A DNA stretch of 64,000 nt, taken from contig CM082584.2 of the NCBI GenBank assembly GCA_040954595.2, forward strand, positions 8,203,919 to 8,267,918, given 5' to 3'. This DNA is from Balanoglossus misakiensis (taxonomy: Eukaryota; Animalia; Hemichordata). The notes under the pieces were generated by a model. It had not been told where the DNA came from. It searched no databases and saw nothing but the letters and a program-made list of their open reading frames with translations. Numbering within the stretch: the stretch's first letter is position 1; every line of letters starts with the position of its first letter. Positions 50 through 64,000 of the stretch are shown here, piece after piece. Made by a program: the position numbers and the translations under genes.

Positions 50-3000
50 CGTCGGCACCATAACACATCAGGGGTTCAACATCTGCCGGGGTCACGGGGC
101 CTGGTCTGTCCCGCGCCGCCACGTTGAACGCCTGGACCCGACACTGGGCTCGGACGTCCCCACCTCCCTCAGACGCCTCGCAGTCAATCCCCACTTTCGC
201 CTCTGTCTCCTTGGAGACCACGCTGTTGTTATAACCTCCTGCCGTGCACAGCACCAGGTACTGCAAACTCTCCAGTGGTCCGTTTGGTCTGAAACGCAAA
301 CCAGTCAACAGCATGGGGTCAGTAGGATTTTATTTTGCTCATGTCAAAATCAGTGCATAAATCTGTTACAATTTTATCTAACTTTACCTCCTGTACTTGA
401 ATAGTGGTTGGAAAATGTTCAACATAGACCAGTTGGCAGGTCCAATATTTCTTGTTTTCTCAGTAAACTGTACAGTCTTGTAATATAGCTACCATTCATC
501 TGTTAGCTTACCTGTGAGGTTGCTCCCAGTTGACAATGACTGCAGATTCACTGCTTGCTTTGATTTTCACATCCAACGGGGCACTGGGTGCTGGATCAAA
601 ACAACAAGTATGTAGTCACATGAGACAAGTGGCAAAATCAGGATTCACCATTGTTTACACATCAGTGCAAGATCAAAGGTTTCTTGGGCGAGACTGCTCT
701 GTGGAAATCCACAGAGGGGCAATTTACTTGACAAATACACAGAAGTATTATGAACTTACAGCCAATCTTGGTGGTACCGTACACGGGCTCGGACCCAGGG
801 CCGCACGGATCCGCCACGAGGGCGTCGCTGCAGGCCCTGACGACAACCACGTACGTCTCATAGCCGCACAGACCGACCACCTGCATTTCCAGGCTGCTGG
901 TCTCCGCGCGGACAGAGTCGCAGTACTCCGTGTTATTCCGCGGCACTGCCTCCACACGGAACGACGCGACCACGACGCCGTCCGGTGTCTGTGGGTACGT
1001 CCAGCTGACGGTCATCTCAGAATCAGTGACGGAAGACGGTGAAATGTTCACGTCTTTTGGAGCCTCAGAAGGGGCTGTGGAGCAAATGAGATTATTATCA
1101 GACTAGATTAGCACAGGGACACAAACAATGTTCTTCCGTGGTGTGGATCATGCACAAAGTCTCAGTTCGGGTCCGCTTTCAGTGGAGATGAACAAATTTT
1201 TACCAAAATCAAACAAAAGTGGATAAAAACTCCACTGACCTCCAATACTTGTTTTCTGCAGAACAAACTCAGTGGCCGGTCCTTCCCCGGCCGTGGTCAG
1301 CGCTGACACCGACGCCGCATAACCTGTGTTGGCTTTCAGACCGGTGATTTCGTAATCCATCGGGTCTGTTCTACTCGCCAGTGACTCCGGATCGGGCAGT
1401 GTGTAGTTGACAGTCATGGAGTCAGCTCCTGATTTAATGGAGCAGAACAAATATTTCTCATCTTTGATAAAAGCAGCATCACATTTTAATACACCAACAC
1501 TAAAATCTAAACTGTTGTTGGAATTTCAGAACTTTCCGAGATTCTCTGGTGATTTTGTTTTAGAAATCGTCTAATTGTTACGCATTTATTTGACTTATTT
1601 TTGTTATAGAAAAATGTGCAGAACATCTCGTCAGCCTTTAATGAGAGATATCCTACAATGATTTTTTTCCAACCCTATACTGCAATTTCATACAGTTTAT
1701 GGTTTAGCGTTTACTAAAGATATCAACTCACCCTGACAGACAATCAGCGAGTCATTTGTGGCTTCACTCAACTGTACAGGACAAACCGTCAGCTTGTACA
1801 CACGGATGATACCATTCCGGGATTCCAAACAGGGGGGTTTCCAATTTGCTGCAAGTACGGTGGGCTGCGTTGGAACAGCTTCTAGAGTTAAGTTGCTAGG
1901 TGGATCCGATGGTGCTTATGGGTAAAAAAAAGCGTAAAATGTTTGATTATTTTCATGATTCAAAGTACGTATTTGTTCTCTGGAAGTGTATCAGAATACT
2001 GAACAGTCTCTTAACCACCCCCCCCCCCCCCCCCCCCAGTTCACTCTTTAGAGGTCAAACCTCACCACAGAAAATAATGGGTTTGGACCGAACCATGGTG
2101 ATGGTAGGGTTAAGGTAGTAAGCACCTTGAGAGTCTTACACTGTTTCAAACATTTAACACTCATGGCAACTTATAAGAAAGTAGAGGTCACCATGCAATA
2201 TTTTATATGTGACAGCTTAATTTAGCATGTGAGAGCTTACAAAATCCTTATAAAAAAGACTTACCCCCTTCCAGTGTGTAGATTATCTTTCTGTCGGAAA
2301 AATACCCATATCCCAACTCATTCCTGGCTTGGACACGGAACACATACTGCACATACGCCTGAAGATCGCCGACAGTGTAACTATGGACGCTGCCTTCAAC
2401 AGTAATTGTTTTCCTACAAAATATCCAAAAATTGTGTTAAAATTGTCCTTGAAGTTTGATTAAAATTTAAAAGAATTCCAGTGGGAGGGCTATACATGTA
2501 AGAAGCTGTAGTTTGCACGATGAACTCCATGCCTGAAATGTTGATAGAGTTGGCCTATCACGCTTGTAAAAAATAATAAATAAAACGTACACATATCAGC
2601 TCTTGCCGCAACTCACCATTTTGAATTTCCCGCAACACTCATGTAGGACAGCACATAATTGATTATCTCGCCGTTAGGATCATCAGGTGGTTGCCATGCA
2701 ACAAAGATACTGTCATCTGAGACAGCATGAATGCTGGTGATCTCTGGGTGACCGGGTACTGTGGAGAGAAGAAGTGACAAACAATTTCTGATAGAGTATT
2801 AGCTACTAATAATTTGCACAACAATACAACAAAGTGTTATGATAATATTCACCCAAAATTAAAGGGTATCAGCTGATACTTTTTATATGTTCTGGGGAGA
2901 ACACTTCAATATGTCTACAACTAGATGGAATTCAGTTGGAATTCTGCACAAACTATTAACTGTCATTCAGCTTACCTGATGTTCCATCTGCCACCCGTAT

Positions 3001-6000: not shown

Positions 6001-6390
6001 ATCGAAAGGGCCATAAATATTAAAGGACACTAAAAGACTGTCCACTAAAATCTGTCTGGCAGAGATAATCTAACAAAAATTTCCATAAATTAATTGACAT
6101 TCAAGAGGCAACATGCAAGGAATGTATGCATTGAGAAAAAGTTCACACAGATTAATTGGTATATAATGTAAGCCTGCAATGGAAAATATGAGAGAAAAAT
6201 TAAGATTTTCCAGAATGATGGGTAAATTAATATGATTTGAAATATGGTGAGCAACTTACATTATAAGGGAAAAAAATTACATATTGAGTGACCTACCAAT
6301 TTGTAATATTTGACAATCTACCAGTGCAGACCAAAGTGCTGAGACCATCAGCACACGAAGAAGCCCTGGATACAATGCCATGATTGTCAT
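50..6390 (-). CDS. Gene A: gp130/Domeless-like class I cytokine receptor (signal-Ig-CHR-5xFN3), 3' end (TM and tail) lies outside the window
   Basis: Phase-compatible GT-AG exons: 6390-6297 (signal MTIMALYPGLLRVLMVSALWSALVDC), 5822-5559 (Ig, C..W..DAGNYTC), 5312-5195 and 4943-4777 (CHR D1, four Cys, FTCQAWNMNEMWCTWD), 4476-4316 and 4080-3921 (CHR D2, YWSEWS at 3952-3966). FN3 exons follow at 3642-3563, 3416-3287, 3074-2976, 2758-2617, 2413-2265, 1914-1732, 1428-1240, 1074-760, 590-512 and 288-50. The CHR has the 1-2-1-0-1 intron phase pattern. A probable 5' UTR exon ends at the donor at 7007. Confidence 0.9.
2011..2113. mobile_element. piggyBac-like MITE copy (TTAA-flanked), degenerate left end
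   Basis: ttaacc...gggttaa. The internal sequence is similar to the reverse complement of the 42320-42412 element. Confidence 0.6.
3161..3234. mobile_element. piggyBac-like MITE (TTAA target duplication, CCCTTT ends)
   Basis: ttaacccttttacc ... ggtgaaagggttaa inverted ends. Shares the atagaaaacaatggg core with the other copies. Confidence 0.7.
5050..5107. mobile_element. Truncated copy of the same piggyBac-like MITE
   Basis: ttaaccctttc..ccatggtttggtccaactccattgtttccata aligns with the start of 42320-42412. Confidence 0.55.
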
Positions 6391-7764
6391 CAGTCCGTGG
6401 ACACAGTTGCTATGGTTACTGCACTACATACATGCAGAGTATATAGGCCTACATTGACACAGTGGTTAAATATTTGCAGAAATGTCTACATCAAGGATGT
6501 TGTGTGCACATCTGAATTTGATGCAACGATGGCCGAGCAACCGGCTAATTGATAAACCTATAATAAAAGAGAGAGAGAATTCCTGGGTAATAGTACGTGC
6601 GATACGAAGGGGTAGTTGACGTGACGTACACAAGTTTGGGTACGTGCGTTGGAACTCAGGTGACGTCACCGGTGTGCAATATATCTGTAAACATGTAAAC
6701 AAAAACATGATGCCAGATTGCAACAGCAAAGTACGACATCGGGCCTGATATCAACACCACACACATTTGTGCCGTACGTGGCCTTCCCAAATTGTTGATC
6801 CGATCATTGATCATCGCCCGTACATCATGATATGTACACAGTACACGACGGGTCGCCGCTGTACATAACGTGCAACCTACACAGGCCTCGAAGAAACTCG
6901 ATCGGTCGGACCACGGTGTGATCGGACGATGCATGTACACGTCCTTCTCGAAATCGGCTGAATTTTAATTCTAAAGGAGTAACGCCACAATGAAATGCTT
7001 GCCTACCTTGTCTCAAATGCGATGTATGATCACGTCATTTCGTTTAATAGGAATCGTGTCACTGAGAGTTTTGTGGTCTGACAACTTCCGTCTCCCAAAC
7101 GTACACAACAAACCGGATTTGTGAACGCGTGATTTGCATGTAGGCCAACAGCATTCAAGAAGAGGTCACAGACTACAGGCTCAAGTTGTTGACTGCTTTG
7201 ATCGCAGCTTTCGTTTCAAAATCGCCCTTCCTCAAACTTATACATGCTCCGGACAGTTCGTGTTATACGCCAACATGGACGCAATAACAACCAGTGACGT
7301 AGGCAAACTTTCCAGGAATTGGTGAATAAATTAACTGTTCGTGCGTTCTATCCTCCACTGTAGATTGCAATTTCAGCAGTTTCTAAGTTTACTCAGCCCC
7401 CTCGGGGGTCTCTGTATAGACTAAAGAGTATGAACGACCGTCCATGCATAGACCAATCGCTTTGTCCTTTTGTTCATCAATGACCACATTAAAATTAACT
7501 GGTAAACAGGTTTTTTTTTTCGCGTGCGCCGTGCGTAATCATATGCCCCTATATGTAGTTCTATAATTTCAAATTTTCATTGGTTAAATTTCAATGGGTG
7601 AGGTTCATCGAAAATTGCGCAAAGTAAGCATATACGGCATTATATATAAACGGTAAAACTCGGTGGGGTTTTTAGAGCGCATAATATGGTTTTGGCATAA
7701 AGGCATATTACGAGTCTTCAAAATTTAAATGGGTAAACTTGGATAAGGAGATTTATCGTTAAGA

Positions 7765-28900: not shown

Positions 28901-31900
28901 TCATTCTGTTAAAGCTTTCCTTACAAGGGAGAATTGAAGACCAAATTTTGTCCGAACCATGATAGTGAACAGGCTAAGACATAAGAAGATTTCTGTTTTC
29001 AATTATTGCAGTGGTCTATGTGACACAGCCACAGTGATCATGCGTAGACCAAATATGGTCCTAGCATGTCACTTTTTACACACATTTTGATGTCATGTTG
29101 TCTTTTACCTCTGTGGGAATAGAGAACGTCAATGCAGAGTTATATAGAACAGGTAAAATTGTTGGCTGGCAGACGAGCTAGAGGAGTATGATTTGAAAGC
29201 AAGTTCGGGACATGGTTTTTGGAGAAAAAAATTCATGATCGGTTTTGTATCATTTATTCTTAGCACCAAGTGAGCCTCGCAGTGTTACTGCTGCAGTCAA
29301 AGACAAGAACAGTATAACGGTGAGCTGGGATCCTCCGTTGTATCCGCGAGGAATCATCCAGGAATACAAGATATACTGGAGAAGGACAGGAGAAGAAGAA
29401 TTGTGAGTGTGTATGCAGGGCTCGTTTTGTTCCTGGAAAACCATTCTTGGAATTTGGATTGTTCCAGGAAGTTTGTAATAGTCCCGGAAACTCTCGGAAA
29501 ATTGATTGACTGCCTGTGGTCCATTGACAAAAATCACAGTTACTTTGAAAGTATGTGTAACAAGTATAGAACATCTAGACAATCACATCTTTGCTTTATT
29601 TCCCTCCAAGAAATTTTGACACGGTGCCCCTGTCGTATCCGAGCCAAGAGTTGAAGTACGATGTGACAGGTTTGGAAGAGTACGTTCAGTACGAATTCCA
29701 CGTTCAGGCATTCACAACTATCGGTGGCGGTGGACTCTCAGAAGTTGCTTATCAGTACACTTTGGAAGGTGGTGAGTGCATTGGCCATTGGTCTCGTGTC
29801 ATTTAAGAAGAAAGAAATTGCATGGAACACGTGTAGTCCTGATGACAAATGCTGATGCCCATAATGAAACTGTACTTTTGGCATACATGTAGTTTGAAAT
29901 CATGTGACATTTTCTCTCTGATTTTCTTGTACAGTACCATCTGGTCCGCCGAGACACATCCAAGTGGAGCCAATTGACGATCCGACCAGACTTCAGCTAA
30001 CTTGGCAGCCACCGTGTTTGGATGAGAGGAAAGGCATTATCCGGGGTTACATTCTTTACTACTGTCAACTGCAGAATCTCTCCAGCTCACTTTCTTGTCT
30101 GGGTAATGATGTCTTAAGTTATTTTTACATAGCATTTTGAAACCAGCAACGTCACAGATCTGTCACAAGGCCTGCAACCCTTGTCACTCAGAATGCCGTA
30201 CAGCATGGTAGTATTATGAAAACTGATGGCCTGGGCCATTTTTGTCTCCTGTATAAGTTAAAAGCCAATTTTAAATAATGGTTAAAAAAAAGGCTGTCCC
30301 AGTCTTCTAAAGAACATACATGTACATGGCCATCCAATGAAAATATACATCATTGGCTAGACCTCAACTTGCGATGGTAACTATGGCCAAATTTGTATAG
30401 CTGACCATGTATGTGTGCCTTTAATGGGCTCTGGATGTCTTCACACAGATTCAACTACTAGGATGCGTAATGTATCTGCCGAGGTGTCACACGAAGTCAT
30501 GGTGGTAGAGCTAGAAGAACTGAAGCCATTCACCGAATATGCTGTGTGGTTGTCGGCCTACACCAGTATAGGAATATCCGGTCCCAACAGTACTGAGATG
30601 TGGAACAGGACATCTGAAGGAAGTGAGTGACTTTGGGATGGTTTGTTGGGCACTATTGGTTGTCATTAAAGGGACAATAACTGTAATTTTTGGGGTGGTT
30701 TTCTTAATTCTGTGTGTCAAGCACAACTTCTTGTTCTACTCCAAAAAGCATTTTTCTTGACAATAGCATATCAGATTATTTGCTGTAGTGTTCAAAATCC
30801 ACTTCTTGCAGTACATGCCCTAATCTAAGTTCACCTTTGACCCGTCTAGCTCCGAGCGCACCCCGGGGAGTGAAGGTCACCAACAGAACAGCCACTGAGA
30901 TCACCCTGGAATGGCAGCCGCCGTCAGAACCGAACGGCATCGTTGAAAATTACGTAGTGAGGTACAACAGTGAATCCATCGTGGCCAACCAGACCAGGGT
31001 CACGTTAATGCAGTTGCTTGGCTACACAACTTACGTCGTCACAGTTCAAGCGTGCACCGGGGCTGTTAGCATTCCCTGTGGAGATGCGTCTGATGAAGTG
31101 CGCCCACAAACGCTGATTGGAGGTAAGGTTTTTGGAAAATTACTAAAAATTTGTAATGTCTGTTTCTCAGCAGATCACTTCCACACTCTTCAGTGTTGTG
31201 CCTGGCTTAAATTTTCTTTATATTTGATGCAATAATACAATGTACATTCTGTTACTCTGCTAAAATGTTAGTTTCACTCATTAATTATCAAAACCGGGCC
31301 TCTTTCTTGGCCGCAGTACCCGGCAAGCCGAGCCCACCAGTGGTGTCCCTGAAGTCGCCGGGAAGCGCCGTGCTGACCGTTGCAGCGCTGTCGACGCCCG
31401 GCGGGCCAGCGGAGCACGTCAAGTACTGGGTCTTCTACAAGAAACCCGGCGACGCCGAGTACATGGAACACACCAGTGTGGCAGGCACCAGGCAGATCAG
31501 CAGCTCCGCCGGCGCGTACACGTACGCAGTTGAAGTGCACATCGATTGCGACGATGTGAAGACTGATGCAGATTACGTGTTCGCTGTGGCGGCCGTCAAC
31601 AGCCGAGGTGATGATTTGCTGGTCGGCCAAATGAGCGATCCCTCTGGCTCTGTTAAGCTGTGCTACCACAAGCCAGGTGAGTTGCTACAGAAAGTTAAAG
31701 GCACAGTAGATGTAACCTTTGATATTATCATTATTTTTGTTCTTTTTTTGTCGTACCACGATGTAATCCGTAGAAACTTTCTACAATTATAGACTTAATT
31801 TATTTATTTTCTATATTTTCCCTTGTTTTAACCCCCAGATATTGCCGTGATAGTGGCTTTAATCATAGTTGGAACCATTTTAGCTATAGCAATCATTTTG

Positions 31901-33788
31901 TGTGGGACATTTAGTTGGAGAAAGTACAAGAAGTCAGAATTTGCTCTACCGGTGCCTGCTGCTAAACTGCCACCTCTGGTGAGAAACAGATTCCACTTGT
32001 TCAGACTCCTCCTGTGTGTGCATATATTTGGGTGTGGCACTGGTTTATTATTTAGCTTGTACAAACCCGCGATTCACAACCTGGTCAGTGGTAATATTAA
32101 GACTTTTATACATATCGCTCAGTAAGTAAAGCCATGAAAGAATTTTTTTTATTTTTGACTAACAGGAGACTTACAATGAGCGAGACCCAGACAGGAAATA
32201 CACAGACGACACCCGCGAAGTGTATGACGTTCTTCAGAATCACCGAGTAGATGCCACACAGCTTAGCAACGGTTATGGGCCTCAGTCCAGGTACCAGCGA
32301 CAGAGTAGTGGAGGATGTAGTGATACCTCGCAGCGATCAGACTCCAGACTCATTCGAGACACCGACCGAGACGCACCGATCGACGAGGACGAAGACGAAG
32401 TGTTTCCGTTACAGTTTCAAGACTACCACAAGTCGAGGAAGCACCCGTTGAGGATAAACATCCCGAAGCATTACGTGAACTCTAACCACCAGGACGCAGG
32501 TTTGCTGGCCATCCACAGTCCCGATTCGGGTTTCATGGCCGGGTCGCCCGGGTATACTGTGGTGCACGACCAGCTGCCCCTCGTTGGGTTTAGCTCCACC
32601 GGCAGTAGTCAGGATGACAGCGTGTCCGAACACTTGCAGATGTCGGACTTCAGCAACGGCCGTAACGCCCCTCCCCACGCGCAACAGGGCAACCGTTTGA
32701 CGAGCATCGATTCGGGATTCGGATTCAACTGTCTGAGCCCCACCGATTCGTCGGCACCGATATCGATCTCCGGATTTCTGCCGTCCGAGACTACCAACGT
32801 CAATTACTCCCAGCTCAGCCCGGACGGCAAACTGGCGCCGGTCAGTTTGGACGAGTCCGGTGGCTCTCACGTTGCCGTGGATATAGACTCGGGACACTGC
32901 CTGGAGAGCGTCGACTACCAGCAGCTGAGCCCGGAGGGGAAACTGGCCCCGGTCACCATGCTCTGTCCGGAGGACGACACGCGGTCGGCAGACCAGATAG
33001 GAGGCGGCTTGGAGTACAGCAGGATAGCTGCTGATGGCACCTTGTCCCCAGTCAGAAAGTCGGAGCCGAATGTGCACTTCAAAGGCGACATGATTGTGCC
33101 GCCGGCGGACGTCACAGTCATGAGCGTCCACGGGGCAACTTCTGGACAGGATGGGGACATGTGCTACGTCTCAGAAGAGAACATGAAGAACCCAACGTCT
33201 AGCCCTGCAAAAGATAGAGTACCAGGTGGTGAGATTTCACTGGACAGCAGCAAAGATACCTCAGGCTCTGCAAGACATTCAGGAGAGCACGGAGGAAAGA
33301 TAAAATTAGATGCACCACCTGCATCGGAATACGTCCCAATTGAGGATCCAATGCCTACAAAAGACAGGCCGTTCATGCGCGACATTAACCAGATGGACAA
33401 CCCTTCCCATGGCAACAGGGTGCATATACACGCCCTCTTGGACAATCCAAACTATGTGCCAAGCACCGGTTACGCCCCTGGCACTGACAATAATCACAGG
33501 ACTCCCGTAAATTCGGAAAAACCTAGCAGTAGTGGCCCGGTGTATGTGAACATTGATTCTGCACCATCTGACACAAACACTGACACACAGGACAGTGGTG
33601 ACAGACCACACTATGTGAATGACAGTGTCACAAAAGGCAGTCCAGCTGATGCTGCTGGTGATGTGAAATCAAAACCTCGGACAGATTCAACTCCACATGA
33701 GTACATCATTCAGGACAGTGTTGCCAATCCTAACCCAACTAATAAACCTGTCGCAGATGGGCAGTATGTTCAACATGCAGATGTGTGA
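25932..33788 (+). CDS. Gene B: complete gp130/Domeless-like class I cytokine receptor (signal-Ig-CHR-5xFN3-TM-long Tyr-rich tail)
   Basis: Exons: 25932-25995 (signal), 26323-26586 (Ig), 26729-26867 and 27046-27230 (CHR D1, FSCHSFNAFDILCTWD), 27381-27547 and 27712-27868 (D2, WGDWS at 27823-27837). FN3 exons are 28190-28278, 28455-28578, 28772-28870, 29264-29402, 29611-29771, 29935-30102, 30449-30622, 30850-31122 and 31317-31676. Then TM plus Box1-like LPVP at 31839-31978 and the cytoplasmic exon 32166-33788. All junctions are phase compatible. Confidence 0.92.
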
Positions 33789-36335: not shown

Positions 36336-39300
36336 ATGGCACCAGAGCGTCGTTTGTCGAAGTTGGTCGTCACTTTGACGGTGTTGACCTGTGCGAGCCT
36401 TCGCTCCGTCCAAGGTAAGAAGGTCGACCCTGCGGGGACGCAGCTGCTGGTCTCAAATTCGAACGCAAATCTTTCAACAAGTTGTTCAGTATCCGTAACG
36501 TGATATAGGCCTCGACTCGTTTAATACGCTTATCAGTTTACCGTGCACCGTGTATTGTAGATCGAACTTTGCAAAATATGTGGACTTTGGTAAAGTTGAA
36601 TTGATAATCAAACAGGATCTCTGCCAACGCATCTATGCATGCTCCAATGTGGTAATCCGCTACTTGGCCTCATGATCATTACACGCAGGGATGCAGGTGT
36701 CCATTTCAGGCTTCGGTGCGGATTTATCCTGAAGTGAACTTGCGATAATACAAGACGTCTTGAAAGCAGTGTGGTGTCATTTTTTCAAAATTCCGCTAGT
36801 TTTTGTGACTTTGAGAGACTCTTTTGTATATATTTGATCCTCATTTCTGTCATAATAATGCACTATTTAGTCGGATTTACTCCATTTTCGGTTCATCATC
36901 GTCCCACTTCTAAGAAGCTAATGCACGTCACCATAACGGCCTGTACCAGGAACTCGCATCTCACAAATACGGGGAAGTGCTTTACACTTTATCTAGGTCA
37001 TCATTCCTCGCTTTACTGCACAACACGCGTTGTTAATATTATCAAACTAAAAAAATGTCGTGTTGTACGTGTACGATGTTTTTTTTTTGCGAAGAATTTG
37101 AATGGATGCTCAAGGAAACTAGGCCTGACAGTGCGAACCTGACACGCCACGCGTTGGCGTAAAAACGAAAGTAGTCCCGGTAAAGCGAAAATTCATGTGC
37201 GTCAGCGTGATATGGTGACGCATCACATCGATTGAAAGCGACCAAGCCGTTAAATTTTCACATTATTTAATAATTTGGGGTTATTTTTTTGTTTTTATGG
37301 GTTATTTATGTTTCTGCACACTTAAACATGCGCGATGACAGGTTGTTAATATTCAACTGTCCCTTTACATGGGGAAACAGGAGAATACACATCTGCAATA
37401 TAATTTTCAGTACTGCCCGAAAATTAAGTGTTTGACGTTTTCATATGTCCTTGTGCACACAATTTCAGTGGGTAGAACGACATGAATGCTCTGGAATTTC
37501 ATGCACAAACCATTTTACAGAGTGATTTTCTATTGAATGGATATTCATTTGCCCAAGAGACACTTGTCTTAATTGTGAAAGGGAAAGCGGATCATGCATG
37601 CCAATTAAAGACAGGGAAAGATGATTCTATTACGGCCAAGGACAACTTCCCACTTTTTGTGCGTAAATCTGTGAAAGGAAAAATAAATAGTGATAAATAC
37701 TGTCGCAGCAAATGATCCTTAACTTCTGCTTGTAGTGAACTGTGATGAATTATAGGTCATTATTCTTTTATGTTTTCTGTTCATTTGACACTGGAGCTGT
37801 TATTAACGATGTTGCTGTGGCTGAATTATAAGAATTATACATCCTCATAATGAACTCTTTTGTTTTATGTGATGATATATTCACGGTAAAATTACGTGAT
37901 ATAATTTACATATATGTGAGAGGCTGTTGTCAATTAAAACGTGTGTAAGATTTTCTGTGGTGGTGGACATGAAATGTTCAAATCCTATTCAAATTCAACC
38001 ACTGTTACCATAGAAAATTCAAATCTAAATCTAGCAATCGCAGATTGTAAGCTCGGACTCTGTGTGTGTGAAAATTTCAAGGTGTCAGTTGCAGAATTTC
38101 TGCCCCTGCACCAATAACCCACAATTCATCGCATTTCATTATTGTGCACCTTAATTTACTTCTTTCGTTCTGTGTTGTCAAGGTGTTCTATTCAATTCGT
38201 GGTCTTTCAGTTTGATGGGTTCCTGGAAGACTGACTTCAGCGTCTATTGAATTCCGGCCAGTAGTGCCCTGTGGGTTTTTCCCACTGCGCTCATTCATTT
38301 CTTTGTGTGAAAGTTGATGTATTTGTTGTTTGTTAGAGCAGGACAATGTGACCAGGCACTTTTGTGAAAGTGACCCCAAATAAAAAATCCCAAGGACAAC
38401 TTCTGTTTAGGATAATGTTTCGTGAAGATTGGCACTGCTGGGCAAATAGAGAGAGCTTCTCTTTTCAGATTCCGAAACAAAGTGACGTTATGGAAAAATG
38501 TGACCCCCTTGCAATAGTGGAAGTGCTTAAATTCGTGGTATAAGTCGGTTTATATTGCAACTCGTAACAATGCGTTACGCTTGATATCACCACACTTTTT
38601 GTCATCAGTTTGCAAAACTCACTTGGCCTGCATCCTCATGAATTTTACAAACGGATGACGTACTAAGTGTTGTCATATCAAGCATAACGCATCGTTACTC
38701 CTGCAATAACCTATACTTAATACATTGTTTGACTTCTATAAGTTATAACTTGTATTGTATAACTTTGGTTATCTTTTCAATATTTGTATTCATTTGTGAT
38801 AAAAACAGCTTCCTGAGTTCTCTATGGCCTGTACATGTGTAATAAACACCCAATGCTTATGTTCACAAATGGCAACAGTGCCAAACACAGTGGCTATTAG
38901 TGATAAGATAAACAGTGGGCATTTATTTAATCGAGCCCCGGGGCATTGAACGCAAAACTTCAAATAGAACACTGACAGACTCATCTGGGTCAGTAACAAA
39001 GATGTTTTTGTACCCTGCACAATCTTTATATTTGCATGATACGTACATGTGTATGTCTGTCACAAATATACATGTTGTCACAAGTCAGTGGTAATGGATG
39101 AGTTCCCTTTAGACAACACTTCTCTTAAATTAGCTGTTGACAGGATAGCCTGTTTGCATGGGTACGAGGCTAGAGATGTAGACTGAATGGTATAATAATT
39201 CTGTCACCAATTGCATTTTTTAAAGTTTTTATGTTATTCTGCTCACTGAAACACTTAATTCACAAGCAGGTTAGACTTAGAAGTAGAACAGAGCTGCTGT

Positions 39301-42300
39301 GTTGGATGCTAATTAGCTAACATGAGTCCATAAATTAGAATAATTTTAAGGGATATATGACAGGTACAGTGTGTAAAATGATATAATACTGATAGCCACG
39401 ACCCAAATAATGTCAAATGTCAGAGGAGAGAGCGGCGTTGTCAATAAAATTCCTACCAACAGAACTCTCCTGTGGCCAGTGGCTGTAAGTCTGTACTGTC
39501 AACTTGTATATACAGACTGCCATGCAGTGTTATTGTCAGGATCATGTAGTGACCGTTAAAAAATGAAGCTGAGAGAAATTTATGGTTCCATGCAATAAAA
39601 CCATTTGTGAATGTGAATGTGGTGGCCAGTGATCTATATTTGTATGTGTAACAACTATAAATGTGTCAACTTGCTCCCCTAGGTTCTTGACTTATACTTA
39701 TAGAAGTATTTCTGCATATTTCTCATATCGGTATAAAATCAACAGGTGAAATTATTGCGGTGGAGATAAGTGTGTGTACATGTACGCCGACCATATTGAC
39801 TCTTGTCTTATTAATACAATGGGATCGGGTACAAGATTTACTGCTGTACTGTACTAGAGAAGTTGTGCAGTAATGACATGACGCCACTCTAAAAGCATTT
39901 CTTAAGCAAACACACAAGTTGTAAATAACTCAAAACCACAGAAGGGTCACATGGTTGTGTATGTTAACTGTTTGTGGAATTTATTCTATCCTATGTGAAG
40001 TTTGACGACTGTACATGTACATTACATTTGTACCGCTGGGTCTCACTGTTACAGTGGCTGCCACAGAGAGATTTTAATTACTTTAATATTTACACAAACT
40101 TTTAATATGTATGCCTTTGAGGTGTGTTTGGTCTTTTGTGTACTTAGTCAAACACAGGTTAATCAGTAATAAAATGCTTCCTCACACTTCAGTGCATTTG
40201 ATCGGTTGCCCACGCTGTTTTGTTCATATATACTCTATCCATTGTGCAGGTCCCAGAGCTGTTAGCACTGTAGTCTTAATTATAATTGAGTTGTAAAGTA
40301 ATGCAGTAGCAAAGTCAACTCAAAGGCCTCTGGATTACCGATAAGACGTGGAATGTGAGACTGTCCACATCCACACTGAGAGGGGCTTCTTTGACAGGCA
40401 CTCATTGCCTTGCTCTGCCAGCATGCAAAGATTTCATACTACCGGGTATAAAACAAAGTACCTGAGGTATAAAAGTATAAAGCCTATTTACTCATAACAC
40501 ACAAGTATAACTTTTATATCTGAGTAAATGGCTTGGAATTACCTTACAAAAGAGCTTTTGATAGATTAAATGACACTTGAAAGTTGGTAATTTGTTTATA
40601 ACGTTGTCAATCATGATGAATATACATGTAATTTGTATATTGCTGATTGAGAGCCTCCGCAAGGCTGGACTCAGAACCACCATTGAATGTTTTACAGTAT
40701 TTTATTTTCATGATTTGTAGGGGTCCAACTTTATTAAAAGGTAGGAACGAATTTTGAAAAGGTCCTCCCACACACTCTAATGCTGGAGAAAAAGGAGTTT
40801 GTCCACTCAATATTTGCTTGGCAACATTAACATATTACCGGTATACATCGTGAAGTGTGCAGGAAATCGTGACTTAAAATGGTCACCACTGTCACTTTTA
40901 TACATCCATCAGTCAACCTTTAAACCCTGTGGGTGGTTTTATGAGCTTGTTTCTGAATTGAAACGCTGCAAAATAAATAATGAAAGTTAATAGAAAATGA
41001 CCCAAATAGCTGGCATGTTGCCAGTCTGTATATAGTGAGTTTTTCCTTATTGTTGTCACAGATCTTTTAATTTACGCCGAGTATGAACACCCACGTGAAA
41101 ATAGGATTCCTGAATGGTTGCTGATACCAGTTGGGTTTCAGTTCATGTCTGTGCCTGAAATTGAAGTAAGGGAACACTTCCCTCTTGTAAAAAATTGTTA
41201 AAAGGACATGTCTGGTGTGCAAACCACAGCTTGTCATTTTCTCCTTTTAAGAAGAGAAAAAGTTTAAAATGTTGACTTCTAAGGTGCATACTACCTTAAA
41301 CCATATACAGAGAACTTCTATCTTTACTTAAAACCATGAGATGCCAGTTTTGTGAAAACATGGCTGACTTTTTACCCACAATGCATTTTGATCTGCACTT
41401 ACCAGTATGTCTGAAAACAATCATTGTGATTGTTTCAGTTGGTCTGTGCGAATTCCAATAACACCCAAATGATATCATCATTACATACAGTGCTACACCA
41501 GACATCTAGTGTCTCATGGTTATATTTAGGAATGGGTGTCATTGAAGTTTATTGATTTATCTGTCTTTTATAAGGTTAATGTTGTTTGGATACAGCTTGT
41601 TGTCAGGTAGTCCAAAGGTCACAGTGTTGTGTCCGCCTGGTATTTGATGGAATGATTGGACATGGGTGATTAGCTGGTGTTTTTTGACTGAATATCGATT
41701 TGCTGTAAAAACATTTATCTCAATTGACATAACTCAATTTTTTGTTTTGCTCAACTGTTTCACCATACTGGGTTTAAGCTTGATCACCCGACTGTCAAAT
41801 GATCAGCTGGTTGCTCATTCTTCTCTACAATCACACACGGGAAGATAATAATTAATTAGACAAGTTAGATAGACCAGCCCTGCATGGGAAGACATAAGCT
41901 CAGATTGAATATAAATTAAGATGTGGATTCATTCTGTTAAGCTTGTTTCGAACTCTCTTTGTCCTGATAAAAGATGTAAACTTGTTGCAAGTTTGTGTCC
42001 CACCCCATGCTATCCGTTTGGAATGAATATGTCAGGAGTGTTTTTGAGGGGAGCCTCAAGGGGGAGCCCCGGTGCATATTCCCATTAAAGACATGACGGC
42101 AACTGTTGTCATAGCAATAGTTGTAGTGAACAGTAGCCCAGCAGTCAGGCGTGAATATGTGCCTTATAAGCTTTACTGTCCATGTTTACATTTCTACTTT
42201 TTTAAATATCCTGGATTATAAGTGGTAATCAACAGGTGGTCATTTGATCTGACCAAAATATACAGTGAATCCAGGTACATGTATGGGGTCCAGCAGCATG

Positions 42301-45300
42301 GTGGCACACATTTCAAAGTTTAACCCTTTCACAACCATGGTTCAGTCCAAACCCATTGTTTTCTATGGTAAGGTTGGACCTCTAAAGAGGGAACTGGGGG
42401 TGAAAGGGTTAAAACAGACAGAATGTATGACTATTATAAATACATCATTCTGATAGGAATATGTTTGAACTGAAAGTGTCATAAATAAAACTTAACAGTT
42501 TGACAATGATCAGATACTGGTATATTGCTCAGCAGTGTATCATGCATGTGCATGGATATGAAACCATGATCATAGCACCTTGATTGAGTGTGTTTGACAC
42601 ATTAATATCTTATACATTACGTCTGCTATGAATAAAGTTTTTTTATAGGTCAGGAGAGGTTGTATATTACATCAAGTCTGTTTCACTCCTAATTTATTGA
42701 CTCAAACTCTGTATACGGTACTGTTACACATATGTAACATGGTATAAATGTTTTCCTTGGATGGAAAAATTGCAGAACTTCAAACAAGAGCCATGTTGGT
42801 TTTCTGTGGAGTTTTTTATCAGCAGGTTTTCTCACACAGGAAGAGATATGGCTGTTGATTGGCATCTTGAGTTTCAGTACGTGCACATCCATGGCAGAGG
42901 TGAATGTTCGGTGCCAACAACTGGTAGTTTAATGTGATCAAAGTACAAGTGTGCAGCCATTCACAGTGTAATATTGAGTGGAGTGGTAAAGGTTTGTTTT
43001 TATCTCTGAGGACATAATACCAAGGCAACTAAACATGTAGGGCAATCCAGCGCAGGTGTTGAAAACCACAGCCATCAAATCACCCTGGCCCATAAAAAAG
43101 TGTCTGAAATAGTCTGGTGAAGTGACTTGGAGACAAATAGTGTGTTTGTGAGGACTCAAGCACTTAACTGTCACTTAATATCAGAAAACCTAAGTTTGAA
43201 AGTAAAAAGTTTAACAAGAGCCCCACTCTACTATACCACAGGTGAAAAGGTTAATTATCCTAGCCAAGTCTGGTTATCAGAATCCATAATCTTCTTCATC
43301 CTGTATACTGTAAGTTGCTGCGTGACCTGAGTACAGTACAATGGTCAACTAGCTTTATCGCTTCTGTCTGTTGATACAGTGTGCCAACGGGATATAAATG
43401 TTTGGTGTATTTGAAGGGTAGGGCTTTGGGGCTTAAGCTTTGTAGTGGAGGAAAGCCACCCCAATAAAAAGAGAAAACAAATTGTGATTTAGGAGTGGTG
43501 GGGCGGCATTTTTGTTGCTTGATTCACTCCAGGAAGTTACTTAATTTGAAGTTAATGCAGAATTGCATGCATGCTTCCCAGTTTGTTGGACTCGCACCAC
43601 ATCTGACCAACTCCCATAGAAGCTCCCGTTTAACCTCCCATTGTGGCCTGACCAATCAGATTGCACGTTACTTTGATCTACACTGAAGGATATTATACCT
43701 ATCGTTCTCTATGGCACCTTCTGATTGGTTTACTGGCCCTGTACAGCCAGAGATCTCACAATTAGCAGAAAATCATCTGTTAAAAAAATTGGAATTGGTG
43801 ATCGAAAACTGTGATTATATTATTGATATTTGTTTCTCCCTGGTCAATCTTTAAAGGGACATTAGCTGTAAATTTGTTTTTGTTTTTCCGGTATCTCTTT
43901 TTTGTGTATCAAGTCCAATTTCTTGCTCTACCCCTGAGTAGCTTGTAATATGTGTATAGGTACACAAAACAAAAGATGTAGCAGAAAGTTACAGCTAATG
44001 GAGCTTTAAAGTACATGTACCTAAACCAGGACAGAACATTTGACTTCTGATTGACCGTTGTCATGATGTAATCACACTTAATTACCGGTAATCGGGAACC
44101 TGACCTGGTGAATGTCTGAACATGTTTCGAACACTTCAGAGGCCATCATTTCCAATAAAACGGTGGAATGTTAAACCTTAAACAATTTTCATGTGATCCT
44201 CTTGCAAACTGGCAACAGCGATTTGTGGCCATTTGTTACAGTATTACTGTCACACGGTCAAGCACTGGTGTGATGTGATGTACAGAATCTCTGTAAGGAT
44301 AGACTTGTACATACATGTACAGTGTGGCCTGGTTAAACTCCTGCACACAGTGCATGCAGGTCTATAATCCCATGATGATAATAATGGGACGACGTGAGTG
44401 CTTGAAATTGCGCAATATATATCCACCTATCATTCCTGACATTAATGTACCCCGGATGATATCTTATATAAATTTTAGATAACTTATCAATAGAGGAAGC
44501 CTGTACCTTTCTCCAATGGACAGGTACATCAAGAAAAAGGGAAGAGATCAAGGATTACTTTACATGTATGTCATAGTTATCCATGTGTGATCTCAATGTT
44601 TTAATGTATATATAATTACCGGTACCTCATGTGTAATGATTTTGATATCACTCCACATACCTAATGGTATAGTAATGATAAAAACCGTAAAACTGCCATG
44701 ATATGCAAAGTACTGTGTGGGTGGCACAGCGTGGGGGAGGGGGTGGCGTGGGTGGGAAGGTGATGTCATAAATGATAAGGACATTTTGTATAGTGTGGAA
44801 TGGCGTGGTGGTGACACTGGCAGAAAGAAATATGGACATACAGTGATACTTATAGTTGTAATATATTGCTATATTATTGTGGCCTCATACCAGAGAGATT
44901 AGACAACACACTTGGCATCGATAGCCATGCTGTTTCTTTATTGCTTTACTGCACATGCTCACCTGTTCAGCCTCATGCATTATACACAACAACTTTTTAC
45001 ATAGCAGTTAATACCAATACATATCACTAGTCTGTTAAGGACATTTCAGGAACACAAACTTGCATCCTTAGGAGAGAGCCTTTTTTTCTACCATCTAGAT
45101 ACCAATGGCAGCACATACTTGTCCAGATTTTCACTGATTCCAGAACATAAAAGCATTCCACAGCCATGAAAATCACTGTGACAAAATTTAATTGCCTGCA
45201 ATAATTTCATTCTAACTTGGTTAGTACAAGGACATGATGTAATAAATGTTCAAGGTTTTAAATAGGATTTTATTGGTTCTCTCTTCTGCACAGCTGATTC

Positions 45301-48300
45301 TAACCCTCCAACCAATGTGCGAAGTGACTGTCCAAACCTGAACTGCACTGTATACTGGGACCCGCCAGAAGGCACGACTGAAAACGACACTTTGTACTAC
45401 ACCACAGAACATCAAGAGTAAGTAATTCCTAATTAGTACATATACGTCATGTTTTGATTGACATTTAGAATGTTGATAGGGAACTTTTGCCAACAGGATC
45501 ATGAACTTCTTTGTGGATAAAAGAGGAAATTGTTTATACACACACCGCTGGTGGCTAATTCAATAATTGAATGGTTTATACATTAATATGAAATTAATGC
45601 ATGCCTAATATAATGCAAACACTGATTTCAAAAAGATCATAGCATATTTGCATTCGGTTTGTATGCAATATAGTAGTAACATGCATGACAATGATCATTG
45701 ACATGTACAAGTAACTTTATTGCATTGCTCTGTAACCCATATTTGATAAATCAGAAGCAGGGATTACCATACTTGGACATTAAACAATAAATTTAACACA
45801 TTCTGTGAATGTTACTTTAAGTTGACCAGTAGCATTTAATTCCTAATCAGTAATTTAATGTTCAAACATAAAATTCCTAATCAGTAATTTTAACATGTTT
45901 GATGTTAGTCCCAATACTGGCAATTTACATGTAGATCAATAACAATTAACAAACAAAAAAAGTGAGAAAGATATGTCTTTGATAGACAGTGCATGTACTT
46001 GCGTACACGGCATAGGCATATTGTAGCATGGAAATTTGCATGGTGTCATTTTCTTACAGCTGTATCGAATTATATGATAATGGATGGATAACAAAGTGTA
46101 CTAACAGCACAGAAAGAGAATGCAACCTTGGTAGTGATTTGACTTTCCCAGAAAAACCATGGTGTGTGTTGGTAGGGACACTAACAGAAGATGGAACTGC
46201 ACAGAATCTGTTGAATCCATCACTTGTGATAGATTCCTATCATACGGGTAAGCTGGAAGTTATACTCCTTAATGCTAGCTATATTTTTCTGGCTTTCAGA
46301 ATGGCAGAGTTGGTGTATGATCCTAATAACTGGATGCACAAACAAGAATGTACAAACACAACTCTCACGTTGTGCAATTTTGGGGCAGACTTCGATCCAA
46401 TTATTTCTGATTGGCGCACAAAAGTCTCGTCACTCAAAGAGGGTGATCCAGAATACAGTACACCTAAGACAGTTGGTGTTATACCTTATTATGATGGTAA
46501 GCTCAGAAGTGGCAATTATTAAATATTGCATCTAGTTGAAAAAAAGTGAAAATTAACTTAAGTACTACTGTACCAAATTTGTTGGAACTATCGACAGATA
46601 GTAAATCATTTTTGTGACAATGTTCTGCTCATTTGCATATATGACTTTTGCTTTTAGTTTTCATTTCCAACATTGCTGCAGCTAATTTGATGAAACTTGC
46701 TTTAGTTATTTATCTGACAGTCATCTGACATCTACAAGTTCCATTTGAATTAATATCTTATTTGCATATTAAATGAATTTGTGCAAGCAGCTGTACAACA
46801 CCAGACTTCCTATACCGAACCTGAAAAATTAGCAGTTATATTTGCGCTAGCAATTCATGTTGTGTACCAAAATATTTATTGTGTTATGCTATTGCTAGTT
46901 AACCATTAATATAGTGTTGGAACTATTTTTTTTTTAATGCAGCAACACTTGGTGAAGCATATATTGTAAATGTAACTACCACCAGCCGTTCAATTTACCT
47001 GAGGTGGGACTCTCCTTACACTCCATATTATGACTACAATACTGACAGACAGAAGCAAATGGAAGAATATTATAGTATCCAGTATAATTTGACATACTGG
47101 GATGTTTCTGATCCTACAGAATGTGTAAGTACTTCCAGGGCTTGCTTGTTTTTTGTTTTTTTGACAAAAAACATCAATGATGATATTCTCACCAAGCTAC
47201 CAAGATCCCAGTTGACTCACTAAAATGTAATGCTGCTTTGTGCAACCTGCATAATTTCATTCAAAATTAAAAAAAAAAATTATAATGTGGGCAGTGATTT
47301 GTATTCATGAACTTGTGATAAAGAAATTAGAATGTATGGGGATTAATTCATAGACAATAATTTTCAATGAAAGTTTTTGAAATTTGACACAGATGACAGT
47401 CGAGACAAGTACTGTAGAATTTACAACTCTTAGTGGAGACAAGATAATTCCATGGAGTACTTACACCATTGTTGTCCAGGGAAGACTGCCTACTATTGCA
47501 GGCTATGGAGAACAGGTTGACGTGACTGTAACCACAGATGAAGAAGGTATTGTATACAATTTGCTTTTACAAATTGTGTATACATGTACCAGTGAAGTGT
47601 GTAATTTGTGACTTATTTTGATTGAAACCACAACCTTACCCTGTCTTGCCGTGACGTCTCCTTGCAGTTAATGTGACGTCATGTGTAAACAACAGTTGCA
47701 TCACCATTTCATGTTTTAGAGTGAGGAGTTTATCAAATTCTGTCAATGTGATTTTTTTTATCCAGCTCCTGGAAAAGGTCTCACACTGACGGAAGATGGG
47801 CAGTCACATGACTGTGACATTTCACCTGATGTCAGAGATGTGTATATCTCCTGGCAGGTGAGTAGAGCAACTCTCAGGCCAGCATCCATAAAATTCATGA
47901 CTGCCAAGAGTTAGATGGATCAGGATTTTCTCAAACCTGTGCATCATTGATAAATTACCACTTACATGTAATGTTTATGCACTATCCCAATAGGCCATTG
48001 AACAGGAGTACTGTTATGGAGAATTAACCAAATATCAAGTACGGTACAGATGCCAAGAAAATGCGACCACAATTGAAACAAATGTAAACACCACTTCCGT
48101 GATCCTGTCAGATATATCAAGATGGTGTGCCTACGATGTAGATGTTTCCGTGTGTAATTCGGCAGGGTGTACCGGAAGTGAAAATCCACTTACAATTGAT
48201 AGCATCAAAATTGGTATATATGTTTACATGTTTTGTTCGTAAACTTTACAAATGTATTCCCCTGTAACTGATATTACTTTGATTTGAGTTATAAGTTAAC

Positions 48301-51116
48301 TTTTGTATAACAATCGTTTACTTTACAGCCAGAGACCCACCAGTAAATGTCACAGCGTACGACACCTCATACACCTCATTCAATGTGACCTGGCTTCCAC
48401 CTGACAACGATGAGTGCGTCCACAGTTACAATGTTCGGTACACAAGTAACATCCACGAAGGGGAAACTGTCTCCTACGGTCTTCATGCCCACATAAGAGA
48501 TGTACCATCTGATACAGAATACACGGTCACTGTCTCTGCCAACATCTATGATTACTATGATAGCACAGACGAGAGTGAACCACGGTCAACAACTGTGAGA
48601 CTTGTTGGTAGGTTAAGACTCTGTCCTTCAAAGTCAGCCACTTATGACCTTGAATGACGGAATAATATGAAGTTATTACAATAGTACCTCAAAGTATACG
48701 GTACTAATGTCCGAGTGCATTCTTTGTGGAATTTTTGTAAAATCATTATTATACATCTTTCATCTCTGTTAGTTTTTTTTAAATCCAAATATCTTGTGTA
48801 CCACAATCAACTTATTTCCAATCATTTCCACAGATTGGACAACGCAAGTAGGTCTGATAGTGATCATGGTAGTCCTTGGTGTAATCGTGATGGGGCTGGT
48901 CATTTTGTATGCTTGCTATAGGAAAAAAGAGTTTGTCTATAAGAACTGCTTTGGAGCCGTTAAGAAAGACTCTTTCGACTCGTACATGGTGAGAGAACTT
49001 TTTGACAGTTTGCAACAAATTAAGATGTTTATATGTTTATGATACTCATTTTATAACCCATTGTCATTTCCAGAGGGGGGGGGAACATATTTGATGAAAA
49101 AATAATGTCATTCAAGTTTTGCATGACTGACAAGGCAGTATCTGTAGTACATGTATTTTAAATGGATAGTGTGACGTCCATGTCTGACCTCATGAGTTAA
49201 TATTAACGGACTAAAGGGACCACATTTTGTTTCCAAATTTTGAGGTGATCATTGAAATTGTAAATAAAGTATGTATAAATCACACTAAAATAAACTCCAA
49301 CCATATTCTATAAATTAACACTAACAGTACATGTCCTCATAGTGTACTGTGTATTGTTAGTTTGCAGGTTTCTCAATGGGTTTGTATATGACATTTTATG
49401 TTGCAGGTCGGAGTCTTAGATGACAGACCTAGTGTTCCAACTCATGAAGCCTTCGAATATGATCGACTGTACGCGCCCACAAATGGGATTACTCTTGGTG
49501 TAAATCTTGACACCTCCTCTCCAACTGAGACTGGGATTGCTTCACAAGTTTCTCCACAATCTTCTGATACCGGAATAAACAGTTCTCCAGGGATGGTACT
49601 AAACCTCAGCTTGTCAGATATCCTCTTGCCTTGTAATAGCGATGATAGTTCAGGCGTGGGTGGAAATGTCGAGCCAATGGAAGAGTATCTGCGGGTGGCC
49701 GCAAGCGACAGTCAAGAACCGAGCAAGGACGGCTCACACGGAGTCGTCAGCTATGTCAGAGTCGGGGCTGGGAATTCAAGTTCAAGTGAGGGTTCCCAGA
49801 GTGGCTACCACTTGCAGAAGCCGGTTACTCCTGAAGGCCAACGGGTTGTGCAGTCTGTGGAGGACGGCGAAACTCAAGGAGTTCATCTGGTGGTGGAGAC
49901 TGCAGGTGACTGGGTGAATGACAGCACGTTGCAGAGTGATGAAGAGGACATCGGTGCCAAACTTGCTAAGATTGGTATCGTACTGGATGTGGACAACGAC
50001 GGCAACGGGAATCCCAGTCTGGAAGAGAAAGCCGACGTGAATTCTTGCGGAATACAGGTGGATTTCAGCGACGGTCTTGAAGATGCAGGTGAGAGGAGCA
50101 CCCACACAGGGGGAGAAATTGCGGATGATTTCGGTCAGGGGAGAGATATTGAGTCACCAGCAAAGCTGGATGTTCAGTTTTTACTTGATGGCAGTTACTG
50201 CGGTGATATAGTGGAGTGCGACAACCAATTATTTGAATCGCATGAATTGCCAGAATTGAGCAGCGGAAGCAGCTCAGGTAGCAAGTCGGCATCGAGTTGT
50301 GGAACCAACATGTCTGGCTACACACCCTCATTAGAGCCAGTGGCAGCGCAGATCGAGGAACACGAACCAACCACCGCAGAGTTTCCAGAAGACAATCCAC
50401 AAGATGAGCCGGATGCAAACCTTGCCGACATCCTCGGTATTCCATTCGGAGGAGGAGATTTCGGAGGGTCCCAGAGTGAAGTCGATTTCAGCGACGGGGA
50501 GGGACAAGACGATGATGACACGCAAGCAGCTGTTGCCGCCAAATCTTCCAACTATGTTGCACCTCCGTCTGTCGCCGAGGAGTCGCGACCCGTCAACAGA
50601 CAAGACTGCAGTTCAGGGGACCAAGCACATGGAGACTACGAAGCTTCAGTTCCACTTCCTGCAAGTGGCGATTATAGTCTGGCACCGGCCACAAGCGACA
50701 GACAGGATCGTTCACCAACTAACTACGTCAGTTCGGGCTACGTTCCTCCGTCAAATTCTCGTGATTTGAAAAGCGAGAAACAAGGAAACTTCCTGAGGCA
50801 GGAGAGCAGTACGAGTGATTATGCAACAGACGACGACATTTGTAGAAGTAGACATGACACTGCTGCAACCAAGTCCGACGAGTCTCCTGCAGAGGAGTGT
50901 GCATCAGATGCCTCGAGCGACAGCGCTGTGGGTAGTTCCTCCGACTCCAATCTAGACATCGCAAACCATCCTGATGGTTTTACAGAAGCCGAAAATTCTC
51001 ATTACTACAAGTCTAACCTGAACAATAACAACATTGACTTGGCAAACACAACAAGGACACCCACAAGTGATTTTTGTGAAACATTTTGCAGCAATGACCA
51101 GACAAACGTCCCCTGA
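36336..51116 (+). CDS. Gene C: class II-like (IL-10R/interferon receptor/tissue factor-type) cytokine receptor with two extra FN3 domains, TM and long acidic Tyr-containing tail
   Basis: Exons: 36336-36414 (signal MAPERRLSKLVVTLTVLTCASLRSVQ), 45294-45417 (PPTNVRSDCPNLNCTVYWDPP..YYT), then either 46060-46247 or 46300-46496 (W..C-x7-C-N-L/F), 46943-47124 (TLG..P.TP..MEEYYSIQYNLTYW) and 47393-47546. FN3 exons are 47766-47857 plus 47994-48213, and 48329-48607. Then TM 48834-48988 and tail 49407-51116. There is no WSxWS, and phases across D1-D2 run 1-2-1-0-1. The receptor call is solid; class II assignment rests on motif recognition. Confidence 0.82.
42320..42412. mobile_element. piggyBac-like MITE, best preserved copy
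   Basis: ttaaccctttcac ... gtgaaagggttaa perfect inverted ends including TTAA. Confidence 0.75.
43851..44009. mobile_element. Non-autonomous DNA transposon, Kolobok-like
   Basis: ttaaagggacattagctgtaa ... ttacagctaatggagctttaa imperfect TIR with TTAA flanks. A similar end remnant lies at about 5519-5543. Confidence 0.6.
46060..46247 (+). CDS. Gene C alternative exon 3a (second half of D1; candidate mutually exclusive exon)
   Basis: Acceptor ttcttacag, donor G|gtaagc, phase 2 to 1. Encodes CIELYDNGWITKCTNSTERECNLGSDLTFPEKPWCVLVGTLTEDG..VIDSYHT. Confidence 0.7.
46300..46496 (+). CDS. Gene C alternative exon 3b (second half of D1; candidate mutually exclusive exon)
   Basis: Acceptor ggctttcag, donor G|gtaagc, phase 2 to 1. 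Encodes MAELVYDPNNWMHKQECTNTTLTLCNFGADFDPIISDWRTKVSSLKEG..VIPYYD. Confidence 0.75.
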
Positions 51117-63984: not shown

Positions 63985-64000
63985 GTAAATACAACGGAGG

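Follow-up and report, generated by a model that had tools for sequence, protein, structure and literature searches.

In vertebrates, the clusters formed by cytokine receptor genes are class-specific. The class II receptors named in the literature covered here are from chordates, namely Ciona and amphioxus (PMC3210801; 10.64898/2026.08.17.745176), lamprey and jawed vertebrates, interferon (IFN) homologues being described as chordate-restricted (10.64898/2026.05.30.728932), and a class I receptor has been reported for Saccoglossus (PMC13203501); further background is given in PMC3296744, PMC3670263 and PMC8218723. A full-text literature search, with most subscription journals outside its reach, returned no hemichordate class II receptor, no linkage of class I and class II genes and no exon switch in the ligand domain of a cytokine receptor, as well as nothing on synteny of GPBP1 with IL6ST and nothing relevant on class II receptors in echinoderms or molluscs. 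Here we describe a stretch of 64,000 nucleotides (nt) from the hemichordate Balanoglossus misakiensis (contig CM082584.2, positions 8,203,919 to 8,267,918; "the window"), which carries two gp130-type class I receptor genes, A and B, and one class II receptor gene of the interferon/IL-10 type, C. The cluster is real and combines both classes; it likely predates this species, and its position likely ties it to the neighbourhood of vertebrate gp130. We lean towards the view that A, B and C lie where the deuterostome ancestor had its only gp130-like gene, with GPBP1 and TMEM69 as neighbours.

Gene models and receptor classes

Exon models of A, B and C were assembled by script from a six-frame translation and a splice-site listing of the window; AG/GT borders are present at all 40 introns and the models are free of internal stops. 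Gene A (50..6381, minus strand, ATG at 6381) comprises 16 coding exons within the window (6381-6297, 5822-5559, 5312-5195, 4943-4777, 4476-4316, 4080-3921, 3642-3563, 3416-3287, 3074-2976, 2758-2617, 2413-2265, 1914-1732, 1428-1240, 1074-760, 590-512 and 288-50). Gene B (25932..33788, plus strand, ATG at 25932, stop at 33788) encodes 1441 residues in 17 exons, and gene C (36336..51116, plus strand, ATG at 36336, stop at 51116) encodes 1060 or 1063 residues. The first-pass annotation of this DNA had placed A and B in divergent orientation with their ATGs about 19.5 kb apart and C about 2.5 kb past the B stop, in agreement with the measured distances of 19,551 and 2,548 nt. Its statement that class I and class II-like receptors lie side by side is likewise borne out, A and B being assigned to class I and C to class II with near certainty.

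The sequences of A and B identify them as class I receptors of group 2. Both start with a signal peptide and an N-terminal Ig domain, followed by a cytokine-receptor module with a WSXWS-type motif (WSEWS at residue 304 of A and WGDWS at residue 311 of B; WSDWS in the Ptychodera orthologues of B) and by five FN3 domains between the module and the membrane region. The C-x9-C-x-W signature is present at residue 126 of A and residue 120 of B, the Pfam family LIFR_D4 scores above its cut-off on B exon 3, the exon phases of the two genes are alike with the exception of the last FN3, and the proteins share 31.5% identity over 821 columns (blastp). A runs past the window edge after the fifth FN3; its visible part contains no hydrophobic peak, and the window does not include its transmembrane segment and tail. 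In B, the transmembrane segment at residue 856 precedes a proline-rich Box1-like motif and a tail of 561 residues with 20 tyrosines. When B exon 14 was searched by itself, the one match among 58 candidates was irrelevant, and a PDB search with the Ig exon of A gave generic Ig matches only, which do not discriminate.

The part of the B tail that is conserved in P0202, a full-length homologue from Ptychodera flava, contains the proline box, one YxxQ, two YxxL sites resembling immunoreceptor tyrosine-based inhibitory motifs (ITIMs) and YxN sites. In analogy to gp130 biology, on which these predicted roles in JAK, STAT, SHP2/SOCS and adaptor binding are based, B would act as the JAK-STAT signal-transducing chain, with the proline box serving JAK and YxxQ serving STAT, besides the YxN sites, and the YxxL sites might mediate SHP2/SOCS-type feedback. 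A probably belongs to this class I signalling system as well, acting by itself or paired with B in the way LIFR is with gp130. The B tail (32166-33788) also shows three spaced ITIM-like tyrosine repeats around residues 1113-1190, two of which are kept in P0202 and fewer in the Ptychodera record P0129, and DSG-type strings resembling a beta-TrCP degron, one of which is kept in P0202.

Gene C is composed of a signal peptide (exon 36336-36414, plus strand, followed by an 8.9-kb first intron), a Tissue_fac-type D1, an Interfer-bind-type D2, two FN3 domains, a transmembrane segment (exon 48834-48988, plus strand) and a long acidic tail, to which the last exon (49407-51116, acidic) contributes 570 residues. 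A homologue search with the 46061-46495 frame gave two matches among 1.84 billion representatives, both from Ptychodera and 45-50% identical to C. P0128 has the four-domain layout of C (43% identity over 434 residues) without a transmembrane segment, and P0127 has two domains, a transmembrane segment and a juxtamembrane motif similar to that of C. Tissue_fac exceeds its cut-off of 27 bits in both homologues (46.4 bits in P0127), whereas Tissue_fac and Interfer-bind remain below cut-off on the single exons of C itself (E 0.012 and 0.0098). All six PDB matches of P0127 are IL-20R1, IL-22BP or IL-22R1, its Atlas model superimposes on IL-22R1 with a template-modelling score of 0.84, and 14 of the 15 PDB matches of the C family profile are class II receptors, including IL-20R1, IL-22BP, IL-10R2 and IFNAR1. 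C lacks both WSXWS and the class I cysteine motif. The intron phases 1-2-1-0-1 over its two-domain module, an array called ancestral for class II (10.64898/2026.05.30.728932), are the same in A and B and hence do not discriminate between the classes. An AlphaFold model for the class II family (alignment A3) was too poor for use (mean predicted local distance difference test score 45.9), and a PDB search with the transmembrane exon of C gave nothing useful.

Some features fit the class assignments less well. The class I motif is defined as C-x(9-10)-C-x-W-x(26-32)-C-x(10-15)-C (PMC1963337), and this strict four-cysteine pattern fails narrowly in A and B: in the translations, all four cysteines are present in A, but one spacer measures 25 and is one residue too short, and B has an insertion carrying a fifth cysteine. 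Next to the membrane segment of C neither a Box1 nor a PxxL box was found. The C tail of 593 residues contains 18 tyrosines and one YxxQ; one DTGxxS resembling a beta-TrCP degron was observed in its last exon, and PMC3210801 reports no DSG motif for the class II receptors of Ciona or amphioxus. The Ptychodera flava records P0126 and P0128, isoforms of a four-domain class II protein both without a transmembrane segment, represent either a truncated gene model or a secreted binder similar to IL-22BP.

A duplicated exon in D1 of gene C

The second half of D1 is encoded twice in gene C. Exon 3b (46300..46496, plus strand, 197 nt) is the conserved form, matched by both Ptychodera homologues, and exon 3a (46060..46247, plus strand, 188 nt, open frame) is a divergent duplicate which keeps both conserved cysteines; both are 3n+2 long with identical phases (2-1), and the intervening 52 nt (46248..46299, plus strand) read in frame and free of stops if retained. 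The homology of the two exons is indicated by a score of 66, reached by none of 2000 shuffles (shuffle maximum 49), and no blastn similarity exists between them. Inclusion of either exon alone results in an open protein of 1060 or 1063 residues, whereas inclusion of both creates 38 stops and omission of both a frame shift. Every one of the 40 modelled introns (minimum 115 nt) is longer than the 52-nt gap, which harbours a single TTAAT resembling a branch point, some 25 nt away from the 3a donor; the 3a acceptor scores better than 33 of 40 real sites and its donor better than 23 of 40. Across 61 codons, 3a and 3b match at 33 first, 32 second and 22 third positions, a pattern that alone is no proof of selection. 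In simulations of neutral decay (0.3-0.7 substitutions per site), the exon remained intact in 12 to 722 of 20,000 runs, and 3a is therefore probably maintained by selection.

Based on these sequence properties, we regard it as probable that 3a and 3b are mutually exclusive. C would then yield two isoforms by choosing 3a or 3b, the short gap hindering their joining and double inclusion or double skipping shifting the frame. The duplicated exon spans the segment that aligns to the second half of D1 of IL-20R1 and IL-22BP, which presumably carries the ligand-contact loops, and the isoforms would differ in this half of D1, half of the predicted ligand-binding domain. Such exon pairs are kept exclusive by steric hindrance and nonsense-mediated decay (PMC4165533).

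Alternatively, exon 3a might be a dead duplicate, or 3a, the gap and 3b might be read as a single long exon, which we consider unlikely although several observations count in its favour and against an exclusive choice. Both Ptychodera class II proteins contain the 3b form only, 3a has diverged more from the Ptychodera homologues (scores of 77 and 56, compared with 175 and 167 for 3b) and gives no Pfam match alone, and the stop-free gap leaves room for a read-through form. However, 3a has retained an intact frame and strong splice sites although the copies no longer share blastn similarity, and a read-through form would presumably put four unpaired strands into one FN3 domain. A PDB search with the read-through sequence gave IL-20R1 at E 0.2, which does not discriminate. 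At 46279, within the gap, there is a possible second acceptor in frame with 3b. Neither the 8.9-kb intron nor the remainder of the window yielded another copy of C exons 2-5.

Age of the pair, linkage and history of the cluster

With a profile built from four A/B exons, 73 proteins were retrieved from 645 candidates, three of them Ptychodera receptors and the remainder sidekick and PTPRF; the full-length P0202 was added via a cluster look-up. All four Ptychodera class I records are B-like, P0202 being 49.7% identical to B over 1396 columns including the tail and 32.5% identical to A. In the ectodomains, B and P0202 share 56.6% identity, compared with 35.8% for A and B and 36.2% for A and P0202, and the A/B duplication therefore very probably predates the split from Ptychodera. 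A recent species-specific origin of the A/B pair, which the first-pass annotation had named as one part of the counter-case to its proposal, is thus rejected, B being far closer to P0202 than to A. Against gp130, P0202 aligns in a single stretch (residues 52-643, 98 bits), followed by IL-12Rb2, LIFR and OSMR; titin and PTPRF outscore gp130, but over FN3 repeats only. Since P0202 reaches 280 bits with A (Ig domain, cytokine-receptor module and three FN3) and 98 bits with gp130, and since two extra FN3 are common to A and B, the pair probably duplicated after the chordates had split off, on the hemichordate or ambulacrarian side; fast evolution in vertebrates could mimic this result. An Atlas search with P0202 gave an uninformative mixture of class I soluble chains and contactins, and a five-row tree, with no supported inner branch and no outgroup, was not used. 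At least four B-like records exist in Ptychodera flava (P0129, P0131, P0132 and P0202; 76-94% identity), due to either lineage-specific expansion or uncollapsed haplotypes, and their RefSeq names are sidekick, PTPRQ, PTPRF or IL12RB2-like.

The other part of that counter-case was absence of the linkage in all related genomes; in Ptychodera, one sequence of 45,689,849 bp contains homologues of B (XP_070564023-026, XP_070562398 and XP_070562400) together with class II homologues (XP_070563991-992 and XP_070562292); one B-like copy (XP_070560802) is on another sequence. These records suggest proximity of the class I and class II genes of Ptychodera rather than demonstrate adjacency, and linkage of B and C is quite likely a common property of enteropneusts.

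Downstream of C, the cluster abuts TMEM69 (DUF3429; coding exon 52619..53434, minus strand), which serves as a synteny and lineage marker, and head to head with it a GPBP1/vasculin-like gene (56444..60853, plus strand; start and stop read from the sequence), identified by a Pfam Vasculin match of 34.4 bits at a cut-off of 27. The best of 416 matches of the TMEM69 exon is from Glandiceps talaboti (61% identity, 243 bits), the next among the 120 listed reaching 172; together with receptor homologues that all came from Ptychodera flava, this points to a likely enteropneust host distinct from these two species. CSF3R, LEPR and IL12RB2 are located near GPBP1L1 on human 1p. GPBP1L1 and TMEM69 are both found at human 1p34.1 and are neighbours across vertebrates (PMC11262184, PMC4082323), and on pig chromosome 16 a table from a genome-wide association study (GWAS) puts ca. 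1.2 Mb between IL31RA/IL6ST/MAP3K1 (35.06 Mb) and GPBP1 (36.30 Mb; PMC13107434). Given the TMEM69-GPBP1 neighbours here and these positions of GPBP1 in pig and of GPBP1L1 in vertebrates, a class I, gp130-like gene probably lay beside GPBP1 in the deuterostome ancestor; that a class II gene was also present at this locus appears doubtful.

We accordingly propose a scenario in which an inverted duplication of the ancestral gp130-like gene at the GPBP1-TMEM69 locus, in the hemichordate or ambulacrarian lineage, would have given rise to A and B before Balanoglossus and Ptychodera separated, C presumably being linked to B by that time. Several points weigh against it. An orthologue of A was not found, the three Ptychodera class I receptors among the 73 profile matches all being B-like, and a fourth B-like copy, P0129, is on a different Ptychodera chromosome. 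In Ptychodera, 32 and about 107 numbers separate the class I and class II accessions, from which position can be gauged only roughly, and co-location on one chromosome carries little weight when two hemichordates are compared. The link of receptors to TMEM69 is seen in the Balanoglossus window only, the retrieved records including neither TMEM69 nor GPBP1 from Ptychodera and no receptor from Glandiceps, and that to vertebrate gp130 consists of one marker family at 1.2 Mb in one GWAS table.

Of the two interpretations offered by the first-pass annotation, a relic of an ancestral cluster or a lineage-specific set of heterodimer partners, the relic form goes beyond the available comparison, in which the sole other genome is that of another enteropneust, and A and B probably arose after the chordates had split off; the class assignment underlying both interpretations holds. 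A relic would imply that A, B and C descend from the original class I/class II tandem duplication and that their linkage predates the deuterostome (or bilaterian) ancestor, which we judge distinctly unlikely. Class I and class II homologues do lie on one Ptychodera chromosome in both accession series, but the comparison is confined to enteropneust genomes; likewise, the common phases 1-2-1-0-1 of the D200 modules of A, B and C are shared by all these receptors and thus uninformative on linkage. Human F3 is on the same chromosome arm as GPBP1L1/TMEM69 and LEPR/IL12RB2, but the PDB matches of C are to the IL-20R1, IL-22BP, IL-10R2 and IFNAR1 group, tissue factor being absent from the 15. An amphioxus class II receptor with four FN3, as in C, is compatible with the relic (10.64898/2026.08.17.745176), while Liongue and Ward report no conserved synteny of the fly and Ciona receptors with vertebrate ones (PMC1963337). 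A reading combining ancestral side-by-side gp130-type and interferon/IL-10-type genes at GPBP1-TMEM69, scattered by the vertebrate genome duplications, with an FGFR-style exon switch in the class II gene is quite improbable; if true, it would imply at least two class II ligands outside the chordates.

A simpler history, unlikely on balance, is a hemichordate-only juxtaposition in which a rearrangement moved a class II gene beside the class I pair without deeper meaning. It would account for adjacency in one genome, for Ptychodera records tens of accession numbers apart and for two families whose copies are multiplying and relocating in Ptychodera (with four B-like records, one of them on another chromosome). 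However, in each accession series the class I records lie near the class II records, and on one chromosome, and the TMEM69-GPBP1 order conserved with vertebrates argues against a freshly shuffled stretch. It is highly unlikely that the genes are clustered because A, B and C, or B and C as a mixed class I/class II heterodimer, form one receptor complex, as might be suggested by the close spacing of B and C and by a Box1 in B without an obvious counterpart in C. Each of the three genes has its own CpG-rich upstream stretch, in vertebrates, receptor chains of class I partner with class I and those of class II with class II, and the C ectodomain with four domains has half the height of the eight-domain A or B. 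The predicted role of C is to respond to another ligand, of class II, together with a class II partner rather than with A or B.

A hemichordate class II family, carried in RefSeq as "DSCAM-like" or "uncharacterized", would place the origin of this receptor type no later than the deuterostome ancestor and poses the problem of which ligand it binds. With the GPBP1-TMEM69 pair there is a marker for following the gp130 locus across phyla, where the earlier study saw no synteny between invertebrates and vertebrates, and a tandem origin of class I and class II receptors becomes testable in existing chromosome-level genomes. If true, the exon switch in the ligand-binding domain would diversify the sensing of cytokines without any need to duplicate genes.

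The A-B gap, the B-C gap and the first intron of C contain 75 stop-free stretches of at least 68 codons, one of which is the first exon of B. No extra gene was detected between A, B and C: one of 73 stretches gave a Pfam match, below cut-off, and one further stretch gave none, although genes with short exons, a cytokine ligand for instance, could escape this search; Rfam gave no match. GAS/ISRE-like matches were also observed but, lacking a control, were not used. CpG-rich stretches are found at about 6-11 kb near A and 24-26 kb near B; since these are separate, with CpG-poor DNA between them, a compact bidirectional A/B promoter was ruled out. The broad stretch at 6000-11000 upstream of A, in which no coding gene was detected, possibly contains the A promoter and 5' non-coding exons, and another CpG-rich stretch near 54-55 kb coincides with the head-to-head pair of TMEM69 (minus) and the GPBP1-like gene (plus). 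A direct repeat of about 145 nt (85% identity) lies in the A-B gap at 21337-21618, a short dispersed repeat occurs at 2033-2113, 3187-3234, 5049-5110, 42319-42416 and 61586-61628, and exons of a short-chain dehydrogenase (Pfam adh_short; 62720-64000, plus strand) continue past the window end.

Comparison with known receptor systems

A and B share the signal peptide, the Ig domain, the module with C-x9-C-x-W and WSXWS and the FN3 stalk with gp130, IL-12Rb2, LIFR and OSMR, with the gp130-like receptor of Ciona and with Domeless of Drosophila. While gp130 has three FN3 past the cytokine-receptor module, A and B have five, and the gp130 match ends at residue 643 of the 855-residue ectodomain. The slightly deviating cysteine spacing of A and B and the 561-residue tail of B with its three tandem ITIM-like repeats also differ from the gp130 group, to which B corresponds in transmembrane segment, proline box, YxxQ and YxxL/V tyrosines (definitions in PMC1963337). 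In contrast to Ciona, for which one gp130-like gene is reported, two long-diverged paralogues are present here.

C resembles IL-20R1, IL-22BP, IL-22R1, IL-10R2 and IFNAR1 in the Tissue_fac and Interfer-bind domains, the 1-2-1-0-1 phases and the lack of WSXWS, and its four FN3-type domains correspond in number to those of amphioxus BjCRFB1, the likeness being one of domain count (10.64898/2026.08.17.745176). Compared to the described class II receptors, C is distinguished by its non-chordate host, two plain FN3 past the module, the duplicated D1 exon and a 593-residue tail in which no PxxL box can be recognised close to the membrane. In the FGFR IIIb/IIIc system, a mutually exclusive exon encodes half of a ligand-binding domain. 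As in exons 3a and 3b of C, exons 5A and 5B of C. elegans egl-15 are tandem and homologous, with a gap too short to splice and/or a frameshift (PMC4165533); the host of the exon pair in Balanoglossus, unlike FGFR and egl-15, is a helical-cytokine receptor. Finally, the IL6ST-IL31RA cluster, with GPBP1 close to it (PMC13107434), and the IFNAR-IL10RB-IFNGR2 cluster consist of tandem receptor genes, as does the Balanoglossus cluster, which differs from both in mixing class I and class II.

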